From assembly GCA_021794015.1 (NCBI GenBank), contig JAJYRQ010000015.1:8154-72153 (forward strand): 64,000 nt of DNA, read 5' to 3'. Shown one piece after another: positions 1,752 to 52,661 of the stretch. Within the stretch, counting starts at the first letter, position 1. The number at the start of each line of letters is the position of its first letter. The notes below the pieces were generated by a model. That model ran no database searches, was not told where the DNA came from, and saw only the letters and a program-made list of their open reading frames with translations. Position numbers and translations under genes: made by a program. The DNA is from Deltaproteobacteria bacterium (lineage in GTDB: Bacteria; Desulfobacterota; Binatia; Binatales; Binataceae).

Positions 1752-2435
1752 TCAGATTCCCAGAAACTGCGCCAGTTCACGCTGCCCGATCTCCCGCACG
1801 GACGCCTCGATCCGCCCACGGCTCATCAGATAAGCGCGATCGGCGGTCCTCCGGATGAGACCTACGTCCTGTTCTACGAGAAGCACCCCGGTCCCGCCGG
1901 CACAAAGCTGCCGTATGAGGCCGCCGACCTCCGCGACGACCGCCGGCATCAACCCCTCCACTGGTTCGTCGACCAGCAAAACAGCGGGATCGAGAAGCAG
2001 GATTCGCGCGAAGGCGAGCAGCTTGCGTTCCCCGCCGCTTAAGCTGCCGGCCTTCTGATTGCGCCGTTCCTTGAGGCGTGAAAAACGCTCGTAGATCGCG
2101 CCCAGCCGCTTGCGCGGCAGCCGCCGCGCGTAGATGGGCACCAACAGGTTCTCCTCAACCGACAGATTCGCACAGAGCTCGCGTTCCTGGGGAACGTAGC
2201 CGATGCCGTAAGAGGCCATCAGAGCAGTCGGCCTGCCGACCAATGACCTGCCGCCGACGCGGATACTCCCTGAAAAGACCTGCGCCAGGCCGACGATCGC
2301 CTTGAGCGTAGTACTCTTGCCCGCACCGTTGCGCCCTACAAGCGCCACTACCTCGCCGGGCCGCACGGTTAGACTTACGTCCCAGACAATCTGGATGGCC
2401 CCGTAGCCCGCGTTTAGGCCGACAAGCTCAAGCAT
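1752..2435 (-). CDS. ABC transporter ATP-binding protein (LivF family)
   Basis: ORF 1752..2507. Walker A GRNGAGKSTTLK, signature LSGGERKLLAFARIL, Walker B LLVDEP. Probable start MLELVGLNAGYG at 2435, with a short overlap onto the upstream ATPase. Confidence 0.85.
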   Translation of the reverse strand: MLELVGLNAGYGAIQIVWDVSLTVRPGEVVALVGRNGAGKSTTLKAIVGLAQVFSGSIRVGGRSLVGRPTALMASYGIGYVPQERELCANLSVEENLLVPIYARRLPRKRLGAIYERFSRLKERRNQKAGSLSGGERKLLAFARILLLDPAVLLVDEPVEGLMPAVVAEVGGLIRQLCAGGTGVLLVEQDVGLIRRTADRAYLMSRGRIEASVREIGQRELAQFLGI

Positions 2436-3195
2436 TGGCCGCCCCAAGATAAATTGCCTGCGCGATTCGACTGGCCCGAACCTCCGAGGGGCTACCCTCG
2501 ACCACAATCCGCCCGTTATGCATAACGGAGATCCTGTCGGCTATGCTCATCACCATCTCGATGTCGTGGTCGACCAACACGATGGTCTGTCGCGCCGCGA
2601 GCAATCGTATCCTGGCGCCAAGCTCGATGCGTTCGCTCGCGCTCATCCCGGCCATCGGCTCGTCGAGCAGCAGCAGACGCGGTTCGTTGGCGAGCGCCAG
2701 CACGATTTCAAGCTGTTTTTGCAACCCATGCGAAAGGCTGGTCGTCTCCTGATGCGCACATTGCGCCATCCCGGCGGTTTCCAGCATAGATAAGGCACGC
2801 TCGGCGAGCAGACGGCAACGGCCCCGCGAGAGCCAATCCCGGGCGGGGCTGTCGCGCTGTAAGGCCAATTGCAGCGCCTGTTGACAAGTCACCCCGGGGA
2901 AAAGACGGGCTATCTGGTAGGAACGGCCGAGCCCCAAGCGCGCCCGCCGGTACATCGGCACGAACGTTATGTCCTTCCCATCGAAGCGAATGCGGCCGGC
3001 GGACGGCAGAAGGTCTCCCGCAAGGACGTGGAGCAGCGTCGTCTTGCCGGCGCCATTGGGACCGATTATGGCGTGAACCTCTCCGGCTCGGACCTCGAGG
3101 TCCAACTCCGACAACACGGTGAAAGGGCCAAACCGCATCGTCAACTGTTCCGCTTGGATAATGGTCGTCACGGCGCCGAACCATTCTTCAGGCAA
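2428..3195 (-). CDS. ABC transporter ATP-binding protein (LivG family)
   Basis: Walker A GPNGAGKTTLLHVLAG, signature LSHGLQKQLEIVLALA, Walker B LLLDEPMAGM, and a LivG-specific C-terminal extension. Confidence 0.85.
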   Translation of the reverse strand: MPEEWFGAVTTIIQAEQLTMRFGPFTVLSELDLEVRAGEVHAIIGPNGAGKTTLLHVLAGDLLPSAGRIRFDGKDITFVPMYRRARLGLGRSYQIARLFPGVTCQQALQLALQRDSPARDWLSRGRCRLLAERALSMLETAGMAQCAHQETTSLSHGLQKQLEIVLALANEPRLLLLDEPMAGMSASERIELGARIRLLAARQTIVLVDHDIEMVMSIADRISVMHNGRIVVEGSPSEVRASRIAQAIYLGAANA

Positions 3196-3247
3196 GCTTT
3201 CAAGTCAAACAGTCGCCAACCATCCTGCGCATCACGCCGCCCGGCAG

Positions 3248-4462
3248 CTATCTGATCCCTCCGATCCCGGCGGCCGGGATGAGATCGAGCACGATTTCCC
3301 TGCCTGCCCTCACCTGGGCGACATAGAGCGGCGCCACTCCCTGGTGGTCTCGCCTGCGAATCGTCAACGGCCCCGCCGGAAACTCTCGGCCGGCTGGAAC
3401 CCTCAAGCCAGCCAGTACGGCAGCCAGCTTCTCGGTGTCCCTGCGGCCGCGAAAGCCCGACCGTTTGATACCCTCGAGCAACGCGTTCGCGGACTGGTAC
3501 GCCTCAAATGCATTCAGGCCGATGACGTCGCCCGGATACTTGGCGAAGTAGGCCGCACGAAACTCCCGGTTCGCGGGCGTCTCGAGCGGCCCATTGGCGT
3601 CACGCGGATAGTCGCCGATGAAGACGAGCCCCTCGGCGGCCTGCGGGAGCCTAGGGAAGTTTTCCGCCGACACCAGCGACTGCATCCCGGCAAACTTCAT
3701 CTTCTTCTGAAGGCCCTGCGCAAGCGCCTCCTGAAGGGCGAGGATGGCGTCGCGACCGGCAAGGACAAAATAGAGTGCTTCGGCCGAAGCATCCACCTTG
3801 CTGATATACGCCGCCACGTCGGTGGCGCCGAACGGAATGCCGATCGAGCCGACCACCCCGCCACCCGCCGCTTCCACCGCCTCCGTGAAGGCCTTGAGGC
3901 CGGATTGACCATAGGCGTAATCCGAGTAGACGACGTACCAGCGCCTGCCGAGGTGCCCGGTGAGCCACTGCGCAAACGAATAATTGCGCTGGCGGTTGTC
4001 CAGCGTCGACCGGAACGAATACCTGTTCACATTCTCCTGGCTGCTGAATTCATCGACCCAGCATCCGCTTGCCGGAACGTAGATGATCTTCTCTTCGCCC
4101 GCAAACTTTTCGAGCGACAGACACTCGGCGCTCGACAGCCCGCCCATCAGGACGTCTACGTTCTCGCGCCCGGTCAATTCGCGGGCGTATCGGATCGCTT
4201 GCGCGGCCTTGGCCTCCGAGTCGCGCTGCACCACTCGAAAGGCTACGTTTCCCAACGCCGGGTCCGTCTTGGCCTCGGCCAGCGCCAAGTCGAGTCCCTT
4301 GCGCGCGTACTTGCCCAGCGCGGCAAAGGGTCCCGTCGCCGGATTGATGAACCCTATCGTGACCGCAGGCGCATCGGTGGCTCTGCTGGTGGAGCGAGCG
4401 AACAGCGCAAGGACCAGTCCCACAACGACAATTACCTCTCGGCGCAAGAAAGCCTCCCTCAT
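3248..4462 (-). CDS. ABC transporter periplasmic substrate-binding protein (Leu/Ile/Val-binding protein family), secreted
   Basis: N-terminal signal peptide (VIVVVGLVLALFARSTS). Type I periplasmic binding fold sequence (IGFINPATGPFAALGKYARKGLDLA...). Heads the five-gene importer operon on the minus strand. Confidence 0.85.
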   Translation of the reverse strand: MREAFLRREVIVVVGLVLALFARSTSRATDAPAVTIGFINPATGPFAALGKYARKGLDLALAEAKTDPALGNVAFRVVQRDSEAKAAQAIRYARELTGRENVDVLMGGLSSAECLSLEKFAGEEKIIYVPASGCWVDEFSSQENVNRYSFRSTLDNRQRNYSFAQWLTGHLGRRWYVVYSDYAYGQSGLKAFTEAVEAAGGGVVGSIGIPFGATDVAAYISKVDASAEALYFVLAGRDAILALQEALAQGLQKKMKFAGMQSLVSAENFPRLPQAAEGLVFIGDYPRDANGPLETPANREFRAAYFAKYPGDVIGLNAFEAYQSANALLEGIKRSGFRGRRDTEKLAAVLAGLRVPAGREFPAGPLTIRRRDHQGVAPLYVAQVRAGREIVLDLIPAAGIGGIR

Positions 4463-4494
4463 GCTACGTCCTTCCCTTACGGTTGACCTGCCAG

Positions 4495-6585
4495 CTACAC
4501 ACTGGTCGCGGCCTGAACAGCCTCGAGCAGTGCTTCAGTTGCCTGCCGTGGCGCCAGCGCGTCGCCAACAATTTTAATCTCGGTGCCCGGCAGCTCGGAC
4601 CTCAGTCGGTGATAGAACCGGTCTTCCGGGATCATTCCGGTGGCGACCACGACGGTGTCGCAAGGTATAAGCTCTTGCGTTTTGTCGGCGGCGCTTACCA
4701 GAAGTTTGTTTCCTTCCACCGCTCGCACGACGCTGTTCAGTCGGACGGCAACCCCGGCTCGCTCGAGGGCCCTAAGCAGCGTCCAGCGCACGGATTTGTT
4801 CAGACTCTTGGCCAACCGCTCCGAACGCTGTACCAGAGTCACGTTTCTCTGAGGCCGTCCGATCATGGCCCGTTGGCGCAGTTCTTCAAGCGGCATAAGT
4901 TCGTGGACCAAAAGGAACTTCACTGTTTCTCCGTCGAGACTGCCGATCGCCCGCAAGTGAAGCGCCGTTTCGCAGCCCGTGGGACCGCCGCCGATGACCA
5001 CAACCTCGTCGCCGAGCGGCCCACTGCTGCCGGCCAGAATGTCGTGCGCGTGGTAAACGCGAATCGAGCTTCGCTCGAGGCCCGGCAACTCCGGCATTAC
5101 CGCTCGCGCGCCCGTCGCAATAATGACGGCATCGGGCCGGTCGGCTCTTAGCAGGTCCACGGTTGCCTCGCAGCCCAAACGTAACTCGATGCCGGGGTGA
5201 GCCCGCACCTGCTTCCTGAGGTCTTCGTACAGCCAGCGATACTCGCCCTTGCCGGGCGCGACATCTCCAATTGCGGCTACGCCTCCAAGCTCCGAACCGC
5301 GCTCATAAAGCGTCACAACGTGTCCTCGCGCAGCCGCGACCTTGGCCGCCATCATTCCGGCGGGGCCACCCCCGACAACCGTCACGCGGCGCACCGGTCC
5401 GGCCGGGCCAGTGCTCAGCTCCAGTTCACGCCCAGCGTAGGGGTTCACCAGGCAACGGGCGGGGCCGTCCCAGGCGGTGTCAAGGCAGACGTTGCAAGCG
5501 ATGCAGTGCACGAGATCTTGGAGCTGCCCCGCCATCAGCTTGCGAGGAAGATGCGGATCGGCCAGAAGCGGCCGCCCCATCGAAACGAAGTCTGCCATCT
5601 CGGCCCGCAAAATCCGCTCGGCCACAAAAGGATCGTTGATCCGGTTGGACGCCCCAACCGCAACCCGAACCGCCGCCCGTACAGCCTGCGCCAACCAGGC
5701 ATAGGCCCCGGTCGGAACCTCCCCCGTAATCTGCGGCACACGCGATTCATGCCAGCCACCGGTGACATTGAACGCCGCAGCCCCGGCACCCTCCAGGATG
5801 CGCGCAATCTCTATGGCCTCGCGATGCGTGTTGCCGCCGGGAACAAGGTCGTGGCCCGCCAGCCGCACCACAATGGGCGTACCTGATAGCCGCCGGCGTA
5901 TGCCACGCAGGATGTTGACCACGATCCGGGCGCGGTTCTGCAGCGTGCCACCGTACTCGTCGGACCGATCGTTGGTCGCCGGCGAGAGGAACTGATTCAG
6001 CAGGTGACCAACCCCGCAGAACAAATCGATGCAGTCGAATCCGGCTGCAACGGCCCGCGCCGCCGCATCGATATACTTCTGCTCGAGCTCGCGCACCTCT
6101 GTCGTGCTCAGGGCATGCACCGGCTCGGGATTGAATCGCGACCGCTTCGCCGACGCGCCCACCGGCTGAAGACCGGTCAGCTTCGATGGTGACACACGGC
6201 CGGTATGATACAATTGGCAGGCGATCTTTCCCTCCGGATACGCCGCCTTCATGGACTTTGTCAGGCGCTCCAGCGGCGGGACGTACTCATCCGACCAAAG
6301 CCCTAGAAGCAGGCTGTTAAAAACGCCGGCCCCGGCAAGCTCCACGGCAAATCCGCCAATAGAGATGAGCCCCGCCCGACCCCGAGCGCGCTCGGTGTAG
6401 AAGGCAATCAGCGTCTCGTCGGCGAAACCCAGACCGCGATGATAGTTGAGGTGCATCGCGGGCATCATTATCCGATTCGGCACAAGCATCGCCCCGATCT
6501 GAAACGGGCTCAGCAGCTTCCACTGCTCCGCGACGAGAACGTTTCGCAAACGAACGCACCTCCCGACAATATCGATATTGACCAA
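4495..6585 (-). CDS. 2,4-dienoyl-CoA reductase-like NADH:flavin oxidoreductase (OYE-type FMN domain, Fe-S motif, C-terminal FAD/NAD(P) domain), 696 aa
   Basis: N-terminal Old-Yellow-Enzyme TIM-barrel motifs (MPAMHLNYH, GFDCIDLF, SPATNDRSDEYGGTLQNRAR). Cys cluster motif CIACNVC. Two dinucleotide-binding GxGxxG motifs (VTVVGGGPAGMMAA; VVVIGGGPTGCETA). Size (~76 kDa) matches the FadH / dienoyl-CoA oxidoreductase class. Confidence 0.8.
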   Translation of the reverse strand: MVNIDIVGRCVRLRNVLVAEQWKLLSPFQIGAMLVPNRIMMPAMHLNYHRGLGFADETLIAFYTERARGRAGLISIGGFAVELAGAGVFNSLLLGLWSDEYVPPLERLTKSMKAAYPEGKIACQLYHTGRVSPSKLTGLQPVGASAKRSRFNPEPVHALSTTEVRELEQKYIDAAARAVAAGFDCIDLFCGVGHLLNQFLSPATNDRSDEYGGTLQNRARIVVNILRGIRRRLSGTPIVVRLAGHDLVPGGNTHREAIEIARILEGAGAAAFNVTGGWHESRVPQITGEVPTGAYAWLAQAVRAAVRVAVGASNRINDPFVAERILRAEMADFVSMGRPLLADPHLPRKLMAGQLQDLVHCIACNVCLDTAWDGPARCLVNPYAGRELELSTGPAGPVRRVTVVGGGPAGMMAAKVAAARGHVVTLYERGSELGGVAAIGDVAPGKGEYRWLYEDLRKQVRAHPGIELRLGCEATVDLLRADRPDAVIIATGARAVMPELPGLERSSIRVYHAHDILAGSSGPLGDEVVVIGGGPTGCETALHLRAIGSLDGETVKFLLVHELMPLEELRQRAMIGRPQRNVTLVQRSERLAKSLNKSVRWTLLRALERAGVAVRLNSVVRAVEGNKLLVSAADKTQELIPCDTVVVATGMIPEDRFYHRLRSELPGTEIKIVGDALAPRQATEALLEAVQAATSV

Positions 6586-7055: not shown

Positions 7056-8723
7056 ATGCATGAACTGGAATTTCGCCTGATGTCCGCCGGCGCCGCCGAA
7101 CCCGGCATCGAAACTGGCCCCAGCCAGCCTGAGGCGCGGGGCAGCGTCCCGGAGCTGCCGCGCCGGTTCAACGCCGCGGTCTACTTCGTCGATCGGCATC
7201 TGCGCGAGGGGCGCGGCGCCAAGGCCGCGCTTATCGACGACGCCGGCGCCCACCCCTACGCCGAACTGGCCGACCGGGTCAACCGCTTTGGCAACGTGCT
7301 TAAGCGGCTGGCCATCCTGGCCGAGCAGCGGGTGATGCTCTGTCTGCCCGACGGCATCGATTTTCCGGCGGCATTCTGGGGCACGATCAAGACGGGCGCA
7401 GTCGCGGTGCCGGCCAACCCGATGCTTTCGGCGGACGACTACGGCTACCTGCTGGCAAACACGCGGGCAAGGGCGCTGGTCGTTTCCAGGTCCTTGCTCG
7501 ATCGCTTGGCGCCGGCGCTAACCGGCGCGCAGTTTCTGCAAAGCGTCCTGGTTGTTGACTGGGAGCCGGACCTGGAAGCTTCGGTGGCACCCGAGCTTCG
7601 GGCCAAGCTGCTCGACCTGCGCCGGCTTAGCGAGCAGGCATCGCCCGAGCTGCAAGCGGCGGCCACTGTCGCCGACGACATTGCCTTTTGGCTCTACTCT
7701 TCGGGCTCAACCGGCCGGCCCAAGGCGGTGATGCACCGGCACGAGAGCCTCTTCTACACCGCGCTGCTTTCCGGGCAGCGGGCGCTTGGCATCGGCTCCG
7801 AGGACGTGATTTTTTCGGCGGCCAAGATGTTTTTTGCCTACGGGCTGGGCAACAGCGTCAGCATCCCGCTCGCCGCGGGCGCAACCGCCGTGGTGAGCGC
7901 CGAGCGGTCCACGCCCAAGCTCGTGGCGAGCGTAATGGAAAGGCATCAGCCGACGGTCTTCTTTGCCGTCCCGACGCTCTACTCGGCGCTGCTGGGCGAG
8001 GGCGGACTCGGCCCGGCGCAGATTTCGCGCCGGCTCAGGCTTTGCGCTTCGGCAGGAGAAGCGTTGCCGGCCGAGCTGGCAGAACGCTGGCAGGAGCGGT
8101 TCGGCGTCGAGATACTCGACGGGCTTGGCTCAACCGAGATGCTGCACAATTTCCTGTCGAATCGGCCGGGCCAGAACCGTCCCGGTGCCAGCGGCAGACC
8201 GGTCCCAGGTTACACCGTCATGGTCCTGAACGAGGAGGGCGAGCAACCGGCGCCGGGCGAGGTGGGAGACCTCTGGTGTCGGGGTCCGTCGGCTGCTTCC
8301 GGCTACTGGAACAACCGGCAGGCTTCAAAGCGCACCTTCCTCGGACCGTGGGTCAGGACCGGCGACAAGTACACCCGCGACGCCGACGGATACTTCCACT
8401 ACGTCGGCCGCTCGGACGAAATGCTCAAGGTAAGCGGAATGTGGGTCTCGCCCTTCGAGGTCGAGTCGGCGCTGGCAAGCCACCCCCAAGTCAGCGAAGC
8501 GGCGGTGGTCGGCCGGGCCGACGCCGACGGCCTGGTCAAGCCCAAGGCGTTCGTCGTGCCAAGGGCCGGCGCGGCGCCGTCGGCGGCGCTTGCGGAGGAG
8601 CTCAAGGCGTTCGTAAAGCAACGGCTTTTGCCGCACAAGTATCCACGCTGGATCGAGTTTCGCGAGCAGTTGCCGCGAACCGCCACCGGTAAGATTCAGC
8701 GCTTCAAGCTGCGGGAGCCGTAA
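7056..8723 (+). CDS. Aromatic acid-CoA ligase of the benzoate-CoA ligase family (candidate 4-hydroxybenzoate-CoA ligase)
   Basis: AMP-binding motif YSSGSTGRPKAV. Benzoate-CoA-ligase-like N-terminus FNAAVYFVDRHLREGRGAKAALID. C-terminal GKIQRFKLRE. The ORF-track N-terminal 137 aa extension (from 6645) is Arg/Pro-rich junk; start placed at MHELEF (7056) or MSAGAAEP (7083). Confidence 0.85.
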   Translation: MHELEFRLMSAGAAEPGIETGPSQPEARGSVPELPRRFNAAVYFVDRHLREGRGAKAALIDDAGAHPYAELADRVNRFGNVLKRLAILAEQRVMLCLPDGIDFPAAFWGTIKTGAVAVPANPMLSADDYGYLLANTRARALVVSRSLLDRLAPALTGAQFLQSVLVVDWEPDLEASVAPELRAKLLDLRRLSEQASPELQAAATVADDIAFWLYSSGSTGRPKAVMHRHESLFYTALLSGQRALGIGSEDVIFSAAKMFFAYGLGNSVSIPLAAGATAVVSAERSTPKLVASVMERHQPTVFFAVPTLYSALLGEGGLGPAQISRRLRLCASAGEALPAELAERWQERFGVEILDGLGSTEMLHNFLSNRPGQNRPGASGRPVPGYTVMVLNEEGEQPAPGEVGDLWCRGPSAASGYWNNRQASKRTFLGPWVRTGDKYTRDADGYFHYVGRSDEMLKVSGMWVSPFEVESALASHPQVSEAAVVGRADADGLVKPKAFVVPRAGAAPSAALAEELKAFVKQRLLPHKYPRWIEFREQLPRTATGKIQRFKLREP

Positions 8724-47456: not shown

Positions 47457-49208
47457 ATGAAGCGCAAGCAAACCAGCAAGGAGCTTCAGAGTCTGGTCGA
47501 TCTCGGCCGTGAACAAGGCTATCTCACGTTCGATCAGGTAAACGAGCTTTTGCCGCAGGACCTTACCTCGCCCACCGACCTGCGGGCGGCTCTCGACAGC
47601 TTCCAGGACCTGGACATCAAGGTGCTCGAGGAAACCCCCGCCGAAACCAGCGAGTCCGAGCTTGAGCCGGAACTCAAGGAGGAAGCCGAAGAGGCGGCGG
47701 AAAAGACCTACACCGACACCGCCGACTCCTCCGACCCGGTCCGTCTTTACCTGAAAGAGATGGGCAACTTCCAGCTCCTCTCCCGCGAGCAGGAGGTCGA
47801 GATCGCCAAGCGTATCGAAGAAGGGGAAAAAGAAGTCGAGGCCGAGGTTTTGCGTTCTCCGGTTATGCTCGACCACGTCATCGCGCTTTGCGCGCGGGTC
47901 GAGGCCGGCGAAGCCAGCCTGCGCGAGGTCTTCGAGGAAAGCGAGGAGGGCGAGCCGGACGAGGAACGAGGCAGCGAGGCCGACGAAAAGCAGCGCAAGC
48001 GGCTGCTGAGCGCCGCCCAAAAGCTCGCCGACCTGCGTCACAGGATCAACGCCGGCGAAGAGCGGCTGCGGGCCCGGCCCGCGCCCCGGCGCAAAACCGC
48101 ACTCCAGACCCAACTGGCTCGGCTTCGGGGACAGGCCAAGTCGCTCCTTGCGGCCCTGCAGCTCTCGCGCCGCGTCTACGAGGCGGTAATCACCGAGCTG
48201 CGCCACCTGCTCAACGAGCACCGCGCCGCGCAGGCGCTAATCCACCGCTACGAAACCGCTACCGCGCGTTCGCGCACCCAGCTTTTGCGCGAGGCGGCCG
48301 GAGCCGAAGACCGCCGCCACATCCTCAAGGTCAACGGCACGCGGGAAAACCTCCTCGATATCGCCGCCCGCATCCGCGAAGCGCAGCGCACCATGCGCTC
48401 GGTCGAGCGCAAGGCGATGGCCGACGGCGAACAACTGGCCAACTCCCTGGCGGTCATCGGCGCCGGCCTGGGAAAAAGCCGCCGGGCCAAGAAGGAGCTG
48501 ACCGAGGCCAATTTGCGCCTGGTGGTGAGCCTGGCCAAGCGCTACACCAACCGCGGCCTGGGCTTTCTCGACCTCATCCAGGAAGGCAACATCGGGCTGA
48601 TGCGCGCGGTCGACAAGTTCGAGTACCAGCGCGGCTACAAATTCTCGACCTACGCCACCTGGTGGATTCGCCAGTCGATGTCGCGCGCCATCGCCGACCA
48701 GGGACGCACCATCCGCATCCCGGTGCACATGGTCGAGACGATCAACAAGCTCTTGCGGGTAACCCGGCTGCTGGTCCAGCGCCTGGGGCACGAGCCGAGC
48801 CCCGAAGAGATCGCCGAGCAGATGGAGATGCCGCTCGACAAGGTCCAGAAGGTGCTCAAGATCGTCAAGGAGCCCATCTCGCTCGAAACCCCGATCGGCG
48901 ACGAGGAGGAAAGCTCGCTGGGCGACTTCGTCGAGGACGAACTCGCACCCTCGCCGCTCGAGGCGGCCATCCAGGGCAACCTCGGCGAGCAGACGCGCAA
49001 GGTGCTCGCCACGCTCACCCCGCGCGAGGAGCAAATCCTCAGGATGCGCTTCGGCATCGGCCAGAAAAGCGACTTCACCCTCGAGGAAGTCGGCAAGCAA
49101 TTCGCCGTCACCCGCGAGCGTATCCGGCAGATCGAGGCCAAGGCGCTGCGCAAGCTTAGGCAGACCACCCGCGCCCGCAACCTGGAAGGCTTCGTCAGCC
49201 ACAATTAG
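47457..49208 (+). CDS. rpoD: RNA polymerase primary sigma factor
   Basis: Acidic region 1.1, region 2 ([35 protein letters not shown]), region 3, region 4 ([15 protein letters not shown]...[27 protein letters not shown]). Confidence 0.95.
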
Positions 49209-49352
49209 CCGGTCGCACCCGCCGGGTGCGGCGCCCGCCGGACGCCCTGCGGCCTGGCCGTTTCGGTTCGGCGCGCGGACGCCTCCCTGGTACCAGGAGC
49301 AACGCCGGGCTTTCGTTGGCGCCAGCCAACCCCCGCCGGCCCTACATGTTTT

Positions 49353-49470
49353 GATAATGCGGGCGACGACGACCGCTTCCGCGCCACCGGCATCGCCGCC
49401 TATCTCAAGAACGGCGGCACGCTCGAGAAGGCCGCCGCCATGGCCAACCACTCCAGCACCCGCACGTCGG
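49353..49470 (+). pseudogene. Tyrosine recombinase (phage-integrase family) C-terminal fragment
   Basis: A frame +2 translation ...RFRATGIAAYLKNGGTLEKAAAMANHSSTRT resembles the integrase C-terminal box II region (R-x-T..Y L.NGG.LE....MA.H.S..T). The frame then breaks before the catalytic Tyr. No N-terminal part is present (rpoD ends at 49208). Confidence 0.4.
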
Positions 49471-49484
49471 CCGGCGGGGCAGTT

Positions 49485-49614
49485 CGAGTTCGAGTTCCGC
49501 GACGGCGATCTGCGCGTCTTCTATCGCGTCCAGGACGACCAAGCGTTGGTTGACGCCATCGGCCGCAAACGCGGCAGCCGGCTTTTTATCGGCGGCAGGA
49601 GCTTGACTCTATGA
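49485..49614 (+). pseudogene. RelE/ParE-family toxin C-terminal fragment
   Basis: ...FRDGDLRVFYRVQDDQALVDAIGRKRGSRLF matches the RelE/ParE C-terminal YRIIYRV.D...V.VL.IGHR motif. The preceding 45 codons of the same ORF (49351..) are Pro/Ala/Arg-rich and not toxin-like. Confidence 0.45.
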
Positions 49615-49853
49615 AAATCGAGAATATCCGCGAGGTCAAAACCCGCTCGAGCCGCCACGTTAGGGAACTTCCTCGCAGCGGTTCAGTCGTGATCACTAAG
49701 AACGGCCGGCCGTGCGCCGCCCTGATACCGGTCACCGAGGACACCGACCTCGAAGCTTTGGCGTTGTCCCAGAACAAGCGCTTCTGGAAACTCATCGACG
49801 AGGCGATCGAACGCGGCAAAAAAGGGGGCTTTGTCGATCTGGCGGACCTCTAA
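49611..49853 (+). CDS. Phd/YefM-family type II antitoxin (intact, 80 aa)
   Basis: MKIENIREVKTRSSRHVRELPRSGSVVITKNGRPCAALIPVTEDTDLEAL fits the Phd/YefM fold (beta-strand ITK/R.GKP.AV..P). ~57% GC versus ~68% in flanking genes. Confidence 0.7.
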   Translation: MKIENIREVKTRSSRHVRELPRSGSVVITKNGRPCAALIPVTEDTDLEALALSQNKRFWKLIDEAIERGKKGGFVDLADL

Positions 49854-49884
49854 CAGGATGCTGAAAAACTACTTTCAGCCCTCA

Positions 49885-49914
49885 TTGCTCAGTTGTCGTA
49901 ACACATCGTAAGAT
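49885..49914 (+). promoter_or_regulatory. Candidate sigma-70 promoter for the PIN-like gene (TTGCTC-18 nt-TAAGAT)
   Basis: In the 146-nt AT-enriched spacer. GAGG sits 6 nt before the GTG start at 50000. Confidence 0.25.
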
Positions 49915-49999
49915 AGCGTGGGCCACGATGGCCTAAGCCTCAAGGCGGTCAAAAAGCCTTTTTCCGCAACCTGCTAAAGAGGCATTAACGAGGCTTCGC

Positions 50000-50920
50000 G
50001 TGAACCGTAACTCTACTGGCGCGCTTCTTTACTTCGACACAAACGTATTCGATCCAAGGGATGGTGTGCCTGAAGCGAAGGAGCCTCTTATTCTCAACGT
50101 TCTCCACTCCCAGCGCTTCCACCTGGTGTTCGACCTTGATTGCTTTTTGGAGCCGCTGCTCGCGTTCCAAGGGCCTGCGGATGACGCGACGCCAAGGAGG
50201 GCTGCGCGCCAACTCGAACGGATGTTGGAATGGTGCGATCACCGCAGAATCGTGACACCACCGCAATTGCTGCTGGTCCAATCGGTGCGTTGGTACTCGG
50301 GGCTGCAGCCTCGGGTAGAAGCGTTTCTCGATAGAGAGAAACTAAACGAGCAGGTTGGAAGGGAACTGGCAAACTGGGACCCGGTTCGCTCGCCGCGGAA
50401 AGCATTTTGGCAAGAAATTGCTTCCGACGCGCAACGCGAGCGACAAATCTCCCAAGACAGCTTCACGACTTTGCTTCAGGAGCTCGGTCCACGTGACGGT
50501 TTCGCGCCGGGCGCCCGAATCCCGGCCTTCGATGAGTTCTGGAACGAGCACAAGTACAGGGTGGCTCAGACCCTCGTGGAGAGCGTCAGCGAAGAGTTGC
50601 AGGAGCCGAGTCTTCGGCAGCGCCGTGGCGAGCGGAGCATCGACGGATTGCTCGCCGTCAGGTGCGTGAACCTGTATGTTCTCGCGACTATCGCACACAT
50701 GTACCCCCGCTTCTACAACGACGGTCGGCAAATTCCGAAGATCAGGCAAAGTGACGCTGCCGATCTGCGACACGCCGTCGCGGCGTCCGTAGCCGAGATT
50801 TTCGTTACAAACGATTCGCGCCTTTATAGGGGCCTTTCGGCTATTCCGATCAAGGACTTCAGGATCGTCGAGTTGAATGCGTTCCTGACGGAGTTGGGAA
50901 ACACGGCTACAGGGCAGTAA
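50000..50920 (+). CDS. PIN-like nuclease-fold protein with ~170-aa internal insertion (306 aa), candidate toxin/defence effector
   Basis: N-terminal LLYFDTNVFDP is PIN motif 1 (Asp in beta1). C-terminal SDAADLRHAVAASVAEIFVTNDSRL is the PIN D-x3-A-x-A...T-x-D motif. Between them lies a helical ~170-aa region with no counterpart in ~130-aa VapC proteins. GTG start with RBS. ~55% GC. Confidence 0.5.
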   Translation: MNRNSTGALLYFDTNVFDPRDGVPEAKEPLILNVLHSQRFHLVFDLDCFLEPLLAFQGPADDATPRRAARQLERMLEWCDHRRIVTPPQLLLVQSVRWYSGLQPRVEAFLDREKLNEQVGRELANWDPVRSPRKAFWQEIASDAQRERQISQDSFTTLLQELGPRDGFAPGARIPAFDEFWNEHKYRVAQTLVESVSEELQEPSLRQRRGERSIDGLLAVRCVNLYVLATIAHMYPRFYNDGRQIPKIRQSDAADLRHAVAASVAEIFVTNDSRLYRGLSAIPIKDFRIVELNAFLTELGNTATGQ

Positions 50921-51383
50921 TGCGAGATCGGATGCGAAAAAGGGAGGTTATCACCCGGAATTTGCGTTTTGGCTTCTCGCTTCTTGCGTTCATAGCTCAA
51001 TTCGGAGGCGTAATACAAGGCTCTGAGGGCCGCCGAGGACGGCGGCTGGCGCGCGAGGCCTGCCCCGCCTGCCCCGAGCTTTGTCGAGGGGAGCCCTGCC
51101 GCTTCGCTGCCCGCCAAGGCGCCCTGGTGCAACCGCCGCTGGATTCTTTTCGCGGTTCGGCGAACGAACGAGGCGCTGGAGAACGGTCCGCAATTCCACC
51201 TCCGGCTCCTTGCTTAAGCGCTCATGCATATCCGGAAGCGGCCGACAGGGAGCAAGCGTGCTTTGCAACGCCCGCCGTGACGGCCTGGCCAAACGTGGCT
51301 TGCGGGCCCAAAACAAAGGCGATGGCGCCAGGTATCGCGGGGACCAGAGCCTCCAGTCCGGAGCCTTTGCTGCGCCAACCAAA

Positions 51384-52661
51384 TCAGGGGATGACGCCCT
51401 GGGAGCGCAGCCGGGCTAGCTCGGCCCGGCTAAAGCCGGCCGCTTCGAGCACCGCGCCGGTGTGCTCGCCAAGAAGCGGCGGACGCCGGGGTCGCCCGCG
51501 GCTTGCGCTCAACTTTACCGGCAAGCCGGTGGCGAAAACCTCGCCGCGCTGCGGATGCGTAAGTTTGAGCAGCATCCGGCGCGCCGCTACCTGCGGATGG
51601 ACGAACAGCTCCTTCAGGTTAAGCACGGGCCCGGCCGGGATGCCATGCTTGGCGAACAGCCGCACCCACTGCACCGCGCGGCGCCCGGCCAGCGCCCGTT
51701 CGATCTCGGCGGTCAAGGCAGCGCGGTTCTCAACGCGCAGCCGCTCGCTCTCGAAACGGGGATCGGCGGCCAGTTCGGGGCGCCCGATGGCCCGCACGAA
51801 GCTCTGCCACATCCGCTCGCTGCCGACCGCGATGTTGAGCGGGCGATCGGCCGCCATGAAAAGGCCGTAGGGTGAGACGAGCGGGTGATGATTGCCCTGC
51901 GGCTTGGGGCTTTTGCCGGTCTCGAAAAAGCTGCCCGCTGACCAACTGAGAATCCCGACTGCGGCCTCGAGCAGCGAGGTTTCCACGCGCTGGCCGCGCC
52001 CCGTGTGCCGGCGCGCCAGGAGCGCCATCACGATGCCGTAAGCGGCAAACATCCCGGCCAAAAGGTCGCAGATCGCCACGCCCATCCGCATCGGCCCGCT
52101 CTGCGGCGTGCCGGTAACGCTCATCAGGCCGGAGAATCCCTGCACGACCTGGTCGAAGCCGGGCGCGTCTCGCAGCGGGCCGCTTGCGCCAAAGCCGCTG
52201 ACGTTGCAGGTGATGATCCGCGGGTTGAGCCTCGACAAGACTCTGTACCCCAAGCCCAACCGCTCCATCACGCGCGGACGAAAATTGTCGATCACCACGT
52301 CGGCGCCCCGAACAAGCTTAAGCAGCGCCGCGCGGCCGGCCGGCTGCCGGTAATCGAGCTGCAGACTCTTCTTCGAGCGATTTACGCTGAAAAAGAAATA
52401 GCCGTCCCGGCCGGGCGCGCTGCCGGGGTCCTGGCGCGCCCCGACAAGCGGCTCGACCTTGATGACTTCGGCGCCGTAGTCGCCAAGAAGCTGCGTGCAA
52501 AAAGGCCCGGCCACGTAGCGGGTTAGATCAATAACCCGCACGCCGGCCAGCGGACTGCGCCCGCCCCCGGCACGCCGCTGCCGAGCGCCCGCCGGCGCTT
52601 GCCGCAACGAAGCGGGGCTCACGGCAGCGCTTGGCGCGCCGGCCTGAGAGCGCCCAGGCAA
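51384..52661 (-). CDS. Family III CoA-transferase (CaiB/BaiF/Frc family)
   Basis: GVRVIDLTRYVAGPFCTQLLGDYGAEVIKVEP N-terminal motif; catalytic Asp region. The real start is probably an internal GTG (~52545), since the N-terminal 40 aa are low complexity. Confidence 0.8.
   Translation of the reverse strand: MPGRSQAGAPSAAVSPASLRQAPAGARQRRAGGGRSPLAGVRVIDLTRYVAGPFCTQLLGDYGAEVIKVEPLVGARQDPGSAPGRDGYFFFSVNRSKKSLQLDYRQPAGRAALLKLVRGADVVIDNFRPRVMERLGLGYRVLSRLNPRIITCNVSGFGASGPLRDAPGFDQVVQGFSGLMSVTGTPQSGPMRMGVAICDLLAGMFAAYGIVMALLARRHTGRGQRVETSLLEAAVGILSWSAGSFFETGKSPKPQGNHHPLVSPYGLFMAADRPLNIAVGSERMWQSFVRAIGRPELAADPRFESERLRVENRAALTAEIERALAGRRAVQWVRLFAKHGIPAGPVLNLKELFVHPQVAARRMLLKLTHPQRGEVFATGLPVKLSASRGRPRRPPLLGEHTGAVLEAAGFSRAELARLRSQGVIP

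Follow-up and report, generated by a model that had tools for sequence, protein, structure and literature searches.

In a 64,000-nucleotide stretch of Binataceae DNA (positions 8,154 to 72,153 of contig JAJYRQ010000015.1, assembly GCA_021794015.1; hereafter the window), a single gene on the plus strand at 50000..50920 encodes a protein of 306 residues which we read, with a probability of roughly 0.68, as a stand-alone, catalytically competent PIN-domain endonuclease of the VapC-like group that carries a helical insert and would serve as a mobile single-gene conflict or defence nuclease. The gene, initially annotated from the sequence as an open reading frame (ORF) with a GTG start, is real and conserved: the start is as described, the frame closes with TAA, one copy is present within the window, and the start position is common to 26 close homologues (identity 48-99%), all of them unnamed and devoid of a Pfam domain. 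An exhaustive HMMER search of metagenomes with the alignment of these close homologues yielded 323 cluster representatives at E<=1e-3, most of which are 270-320 residues long and aligned over roughly residues 10 to 300. The family is best described as unnamed, unannotated by current domain databases, and lying within the VapC-like group of the PIN-like superfamily.

The initial annotation had recognised PIN motifs at both ends of the protein, and a complete D-E-D-D set of acidic residues can indeed be located, consisting of D13, E51, D255 and D272. The N-terminal motif, LLYFDTNVFDP at residues 9-19, reads as first quoted and has the codon of D13 at 50036-50038, and the C-terminal motif, SDAADLRHAVAASVAEIFVTNDSRL, occupies residues 251-275, with D255 encoded at 50762-50764 and D272 at 50813-50815. 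In an alignment of 84 diverse full-length members of the family (A2, mean identity 26%), D13 and E51 are invariant (84/84 each) and D255 is retained in 82/84; position 272 is occupied by Asp in 80/84 and by Glu in the other 4/84, i.e. by D or E in 84/84. A histidine, H258, accompanies the third acidic residue in 80/84. Given 84 members at this mean identity, conservation of the PIN motifs is, as judged from the alignment, beyond chance.

Comparisons with established PIN families were made both with single proteins and with profiles. When the 84 members were scanned singly against Pfam, 24 matched PIN_12, 15 matched PIN and 7 matched PIN_3, the best match to PIN_12 (PF16289) reaching E=3e-6. 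The N-termini of members match positions 1-71 of 120 in the Pfam PIN model (PF01850) and positions 1-115 of 172 in PIN_12, and their C-termini match positions 65-117 of 120 in Pfam PIN, the two halves being co-linear. For profile-profile alignment with hhalign, a VapC profile (A3) was built from a neighbour gene of a homologue locus. The C-terminal part of the family aligned to it (P=8.8e-5 to 6.8e-4), with D255 opposite D108 and D272 opposite D127. A family profile from which the insert had been deleted (residues 105-239 removed) aligned over 128 columns, 9-147 of the family against 2-137 of 142 of VapC, with a score of 28.7 and P=4.4e-4, and here D13 was paired with D6 and E51 with E41. Controls scored far lower, at 14.7 for the reversed VapC profile, 19.5 for the best of 30 column shuffles and 11.5 for the insert alone. 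This profile similarity to established PIN families holds at the level of the family only, the window protein alone being without a match. By these profile matches, the family is distantly related to PIN_12.

A structural model obtained with AlphaFold2 (AF2) and the homologue alignment (predicted local distance difference test score, pLDDT, 80.9; predicted template modelling score, pTM, 0.82) points in the same direction. In the N-terminal part of the PIN core (residues 8-99, 50021..50296 on the plus strand, delimited by the AF2 model, the invariant residues, Pfam and hhalign), the predicted order is strand 1 (residues 8-12, next to D13), two helices, strand 2 (40-45), a helix (46-54) with E51 (codon at 50150-50152), a further helix, strand 3 (80-85) and a helix (88-99). 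There follow the predicted helices of the insert, between residues 117 and 238, and then the C-terminal part of the core (residues 250-303, 50747..50908, plus strand, delimited by conservation, hhalign and Pfam), in which a helix (250-262) bearing D255 and H258 precedes strand 4 (267-270), the triplet T270-N271-D272, a helix, strand 5 (287-291) and a terminal helix. The predicted order of elements is that of a PIN domain with one large interruption. A Foldseek search of the full model against the PDB and BFVD gave no significant match; the only compact matches of low root-mean-square deviation in the PDB were the PIN domains of SMG6/EST1A, which were not significant (E ~1.2). Among PDB sequences, profiles A1 and A2 found nothing beyond helical matches of chance level. 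Five independent lines, namely the acidic residues, Pfam, profile-profile alignment, the AF2 model and the fold search, agree that the protein is very probably a PIN-domain protein. By analogy with characterised PIN domains, it would be a metal-dependent endonuclease, most probably an RNase.

The large insertion that had been proposed to split the PIN core is present, but is shorter than the ~170 residues first given: it comprises about 150 residues (100-249, encoded at 50297..50746 on the plus strand; delimited by the AF2 model and conservation). It lies between the helix that follows strand 3 and the helix bearing the third acidic residue, D255. Its proposed helical nature is borne out by the AF2 model, with about six predicted helices. 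The segment initially quoted as the beginning of the insert, HLVFDLDCFLEP at residues 41-52, is instead part of the PIN core, because it comprises strand 2 and the helix bearing the invariant, catalytic E51. An insert is found in 84/84 members, with a length of 127-153 residues (median 137). Its first half is the more variable (16% mean identity), whereas its second half (171-249) has a mean identity of 30.5%, equal to that of the core (29-36%). Recognisable motifs are P-x-F-x-x-[YF]-W, with F177, and RG-x-x-x-LL, with L218; F177, G213 and L218 are near-invariant positions, position 213 being a serine in the window protein. The net charge of the insert varies widely across the family. Modelled alone with AF2, the insert is predicted to be all-helical (pLDDT 71.8), and it found no match in comparisons with VapC, with PDB sequences or, using the insert-only model and Foldseek, with PDB folds. 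Since the insert is family-wide and its second half is conserved like the core, it is, on the evidence of the alignment, an ancient and integral module of the family.

Taken with the absence of a partner gene from the loci described below, conservation of the insert at the level of the core suggests that it probably serves in substrate recognition, oligomerisation or regulation in cis. It is tempting to speculate further that the helical module is a built-in regulator which occludes or gates the PIN active site in cis, in the manner of a covalently fused antitoxin or sensor, and frees that site in response to a trigger. We consider this more specific proposal doubtful. If it were true, the protein would be a toxin-antitoxin or abortive-infection switch in one polypeptide, triggered for example by phage infection, and the founder of a new family of single-gene defence systems in Binatia, Nitrospirota and other soil phyla.

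The distribution of the family is patchy. No member was found among 185,579 GTDB species representatives with the alignment of the close family, and the wider family was recovered at only 20 loci in a contig profile search with the sub-alignment A4. These loci (homologue loci are given here by L numbers) belong to metagenome-assembled genomes (MAGs) of Binataceae/Binatia, Nitrospirales, Clostridia and Gemmatimonadota. Among L024-L028, from MAGs of Binataceae and of 'delta proteobacterium', there are genomes in which the wider family is represented twice, and apparent frameshifts divide several copies into two ORFs, which may reflect pseudogenes or errors of long-read assembly.

Gene context differs in every lineage examined, including the contexts with rpoD and Phd and with GltD. 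Upstream of homologues elsewhere there are RNase E/G (L008), ParAB, a complete BrnT-BrnA pair (L011) or a transposase/resolvase region (L010), and in L001 nothing recognisable precedes the homologue. When ORFs within 1.6 kb of the gene were clustered across 24 loci, no recurrent partner emerged; only shadow ORFs and GltD recurred. GltD was rejected as a partner because it is a housekeeping gene, and it was present in four syntenic Binataceae loci only. Neither Phd nor a conserved small partner gene was seen at the other homologue contexts examined. In base composition, the gene lies 5-16 points of G+C below its surroundings in the window and in L013, L024, L025, L027 and L028; no such lowering was seen in L015, L018, L019, L022 and L012. 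As these searches show, the gene travels alone, and it is often found at the margin of islands that carry an integrase or are rich in toxin-antitoxin genes. As a separate observation, a distant family member in L017 (region 1754-5177) has a small antitoxin-like ORF and a ParE toxin upstream and a 532-residue GHKL-type (HATPase_c_3) ATPase downstream, in a layout reminiscent of a defence island.

These data bear on the possibility that the protein is a housekeeping nuclease for RNA processing, of the rRNA or tRNA maturation type, which lies beside rpoD for functional reasons. The gene does adjoin rpoD in the window, RNase E/G in L008 and ParAB/GidAB in another contig, and monocistronic PIN proteins can be housekeeping enzymes (PMC5499597). 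Nevertheless, the patchy distribution of the family, the presence in some genomes of two copies, some of them apparently frameshifted, the change of context from lineage to lineage, and the lowered G+C of the gene in the window and several other loci all argue against such a role, as do the remains of an integrase and a toxin that flank the gene in the window. We therefore regard a housekeeping function as improbable.

Several homologues follow an integrase. In L003-L006 an integrase lies directly upstream of the homologue, inside a toxin-antitoxin-rich island, and in L023 an integrase is found ~95 bp upstream of the family member; across these loci the gap from the end of the integrase to the start of the PIN-like gene ranges from 2 nt (called genes) to ~95 nt. 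The region of L003 around the homologue P0004 (2300-6700) contains three PIN/VapC genes, a Phd gene, a HicB-like gene and the integrase. In the window, 31 codons from the C-terminal catalytic region of a tyrosine recombinase were identified by tblastn at 49377..49469 on the plus strand. This remnant, FRATGIAAYLKNGGTLEKAAAMANHSSTRTS, has 68% identity (local tblastn E=5e-9) to residues 281-311 of the L003 integrase, i.e. the one directly upstream of P0004, and 86% nucleotide identity over 51 nt. The remnant suggests that the PIN-like gene arrived as cargo near the integrase end of an element, and that this element decayed afterwards.

The same data could be taken to mean that the PIN-like protein is an accessory factor of the neighbouring tyrosine recombinase, the two forming a mobility module, given the short distances in L003-L006 and L023 and the fragment of the same type in the window. 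However, most loci have no integrase within 4 kb, and in the window only a fragment of the integrase is left, whereas the PIN-like gene has stayed whole and shows 92-99% conservation among sister loci; moreover, cargo genes are commonly located at the integrase-proximal end of islands. An accessory role is in our view no more probable than a housekeeping one.

A Phd/YefM antitoxin gene of 80 codons (49611..49853, plus strand; PF02604, E=6.9e-8) lies 146 bp upstream of the PIN-like gene, on the same strand and in the same stretch of low G+C, and the initial annotation had pointed to a VapC-type toxin of a type II pair with Phd as its antitoxin. Analysis of the Phd gene leads elsewhere. It is preceded at 49465..49614 (plus strand) by the 3' half of a ParE/RelE-like toxin gene, with weak matches to PF05016, from which the N-terminal ~50 codons are missing. 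This toxin remnant has 80% identity to residues 51-99 of an intact 99-residue ParE-like protein in L032, and overlaps phd by 4 bp, as in the intact ParE-Phd module. In other Binataceae, indeed, an 84%-identical Phd forms a two-gene operon with an upstream 99-residue ParE-like toxin, likewise with a 4-bp overlap, and is followed by an unrelated DUF1330 gene. The intact pair is found in L032-L039; the window phd is itself intact and is identical in at least 22 contigs. Phd homologues number 666, of which the 120 listed are 80-100% identical and mostly from Binataceae.

Boundaries of nucleotide homology separate the two genes. Window positions 49465-49856 are 82% identical to L032 in a block that extends as far as the Phd stop. 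PIN-like loci match the window at positions 50011-50919 only, inside the PIN-like coding sequence (CDS); the 146-bp spacer between phd and the PIN-like gene matches neither ParE-Phd nor PIN-like loci. The layout of Phd followed by the PIN-like gene does recur in 8/8 places with an identical Phd, but these are one near-identical syntenic locus. Phd-VapC pairs exist in related genomes, and those of L003 overlap, in contrast to the 146-bp gap of the window. The other homologue contexts examined lack Phd, and this Phd type is far commoner than the PIN-like gene (666 homologues versus 26 close ones). By homology, then, the window Phd is the antitoxin of a different, broken ParE-Phd module whose cognate ParE-like toxin is truncated here, and not the partner of the PIN-like protein; pairing of the two appears marginally less probable even than the housekeeping and integrase-accessory roles. 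Between rpoD and a CoA-transferase gene there thus lies a small patch of mobile-element debris, in which the PIN-like gene is intact, phd is an orphan, parE is broken and the integrase survives as a fragment; G+C from ~49600 to 51000 is 51-62% compared with 65-70% in the flanks.

Several results weigh against a mobile defence nuclease of the PIN type. No Pfam, NCBIfam or PADLOC model, including the defence models of PADLOC-DB 2.0, matched the window protein at threshold; Pfam PIN-family bit scores, inspected for ten members, were all below the gathering cut-offs; two candidate PADLOC models (PDC-M11A) gave only weak matches, to 8/84 and 3/84 members, with best E=5e-4 to 1.2e-3; and no relatives were found in two scans of IMG/VR viral contigs or among PLSDB plasmids. 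The missing curated match and the non-significant Foldseek hits to PIN domains would also suit a degenerate, inactive PIN-like scaffold or a chance likeness of two short motifs, but each of the four acidic positions, like H258, is retained in 80-84 of the 84 members despite a mean identity of 26%, and both halves are co-linear with PIN models and well above the controls, so that this is the least probable of the explanations considered.

Around the gene, few other signals were detected. The ribosome-binding site claimed for it corresponds to a Shine-Dalgarno-like GAGG, read from the sequence at 49990..49993 (plus strand), 6 nt ahead of the GTG at 50000. The promoter-like hexamers, on the other hand, could not be substantiated: a consensus scan of 49300-51500 gave no sigma-70-like promoter, and terminators appeared only at chance level. 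No Rfam family was found in 49000-51600 and no tRNA within the window, and repeats at the island edges are short and weak only. The TAATG overlap of stop and start codons noted at the end of the gene exists (50918-50922), but the frame into which it leads, first described as short, is a mechanical ORF of 316 codons (50920-51870, plus strand) and probably not a gene. Part of it runs antisense to the CoA-transferase gene (51384-52661, minus strand). Only loci whose DNA is ~100% identical share this frame, and no divergent homologue has a counterpart 3' of its stop codon; nothing in these data speaks for a gene, and the frame was rejected as one. A structural difference was noted in the same region: the sister loci L041, L042 and L044 have ~313 extra bases ~171-484 nt 3' of the PIN-like stop, the loci being otherwise ~98-100% identical. 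The corresponding site in the window is at ~51091-51101, with an 11-nt stretch shared at the junction, and the difference may stem from insertion of a small mobile sequence or from deletion between short repeats. A 163-residue ORF on the minus strand, without a Pfam domain, is called across this segment.

If the protein is a stand-alone PIN nuclease as proposed, the carboxylates of D13, E51, D255 and D272 would bind Mg2+ or Mn2+ and cleave RNA as in VapC; metal binding by carboxylates and endonucleolytic cleavage are those of VapC-like PIN domains (Matelska et al. 2017, PMC5499597). The helical module would take over in cis the part played by the partner in VapBC, by selecting the substrate, by mediating oligomerisation or by gating the active site. 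Context and precedent suggest that the protein acts in conflict or defence, like the single-gene PIN_12 system Cosus, and not in housekeeping; this is the weakest step of the proposal.

Few bacterial toxins and defence effectors are as abundant as PIN nucleases. To our knowledge, almost all bacterial examples studied are VapC proteins of ~130 residues that are held in check by a separate antitoxin. The present family, with ~300 sequence clusters, a full catalytic set, a helical module of ~140 residues within the fold and no partner gene, raises the question of how a partnerless nuclease stays harmless and what it recognises. It occurs chiefly in soil lineages that have been little studied (Binatia, Nitrospirales, Gemmatimonadota). 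The finding adds to a known superfamily rather than establishing a new principle, and corrects a tempting toxin-antitoxin annotation: proximity of an antitoxin gene is a poor guide to function, the antitoxin here stemming from a broken ParE module.

Among known systems, canonical VapC (PF01850) agrees with the family in its acidic tetrad and in the succession of its core elements. It differs in being a compact protein of ~130-145 residues with no insert, compared with 306 residues for the window protein, and in being encoded immediately after, and usually overlapping, its cognate antitoxin, whereas the PIN-like gene has no conserved partner. Membership in VapBC fails because there is no cognate antitoxin and the protein is not a compact toxin.

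PIN_12 (formerly DUF4935) is the best-matching model for members of the family, which share with it the region of the N-terminal [YF]-[FL]-D-T-N motif. PIN_12 genes are reported to be mostly monocistronic and of unknown function. DUF4935 proteins are ~350 residues long; residues 1-200 form the PIN part, the rest is an alpha/beta region, and helices added after strands 2 and 3 have been described (PMC5499597). Matches of the present family are confined to the N-terminal part, with 15.6-22 bits for the members examined against a cut-off of 32 bits, and the window protein has no match at E<=1. In addition, the core is split here, and the last two catalytic motifs come after an all-helical insert of ~140 residues. 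Because of this score below the cut-off and the different architecture, membership in PIN_12 fails as well.

Further afield, FEN-like 5' nucleases (PMC5499597) likewise have a PIN core interrupted by a helical module for substrate handling, the helical arch. Their arch lies elsewhere in the fold, and they possess an H3TH domain and extra acidic residues in addition; no FEN-like similarity was detected in sequence or fold.

The closest functional precedent is Cosus (Brc24), a single-gene PIN_12 system of mobile integron cassettes that protects E. coli from T7, and in which the substitutions T12A, D14A and D96A reduce protection (bioRxiv 10.1101/2024.07.02.601719). It resembles the present family in consisting of a single gene, in its PIN_12-type domain and in its mobile carriage, and its T12 and D14, as described in the preprint, are analogous to T14 and D13 here. 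The position of its third critical Asp, at residue 96, points to an uninterrupted PIN core, free of any large insert. Cosus is hosted by Gammaproteobacteria and the present family by Binatia, and a defence phenotype is known for Cosus only.

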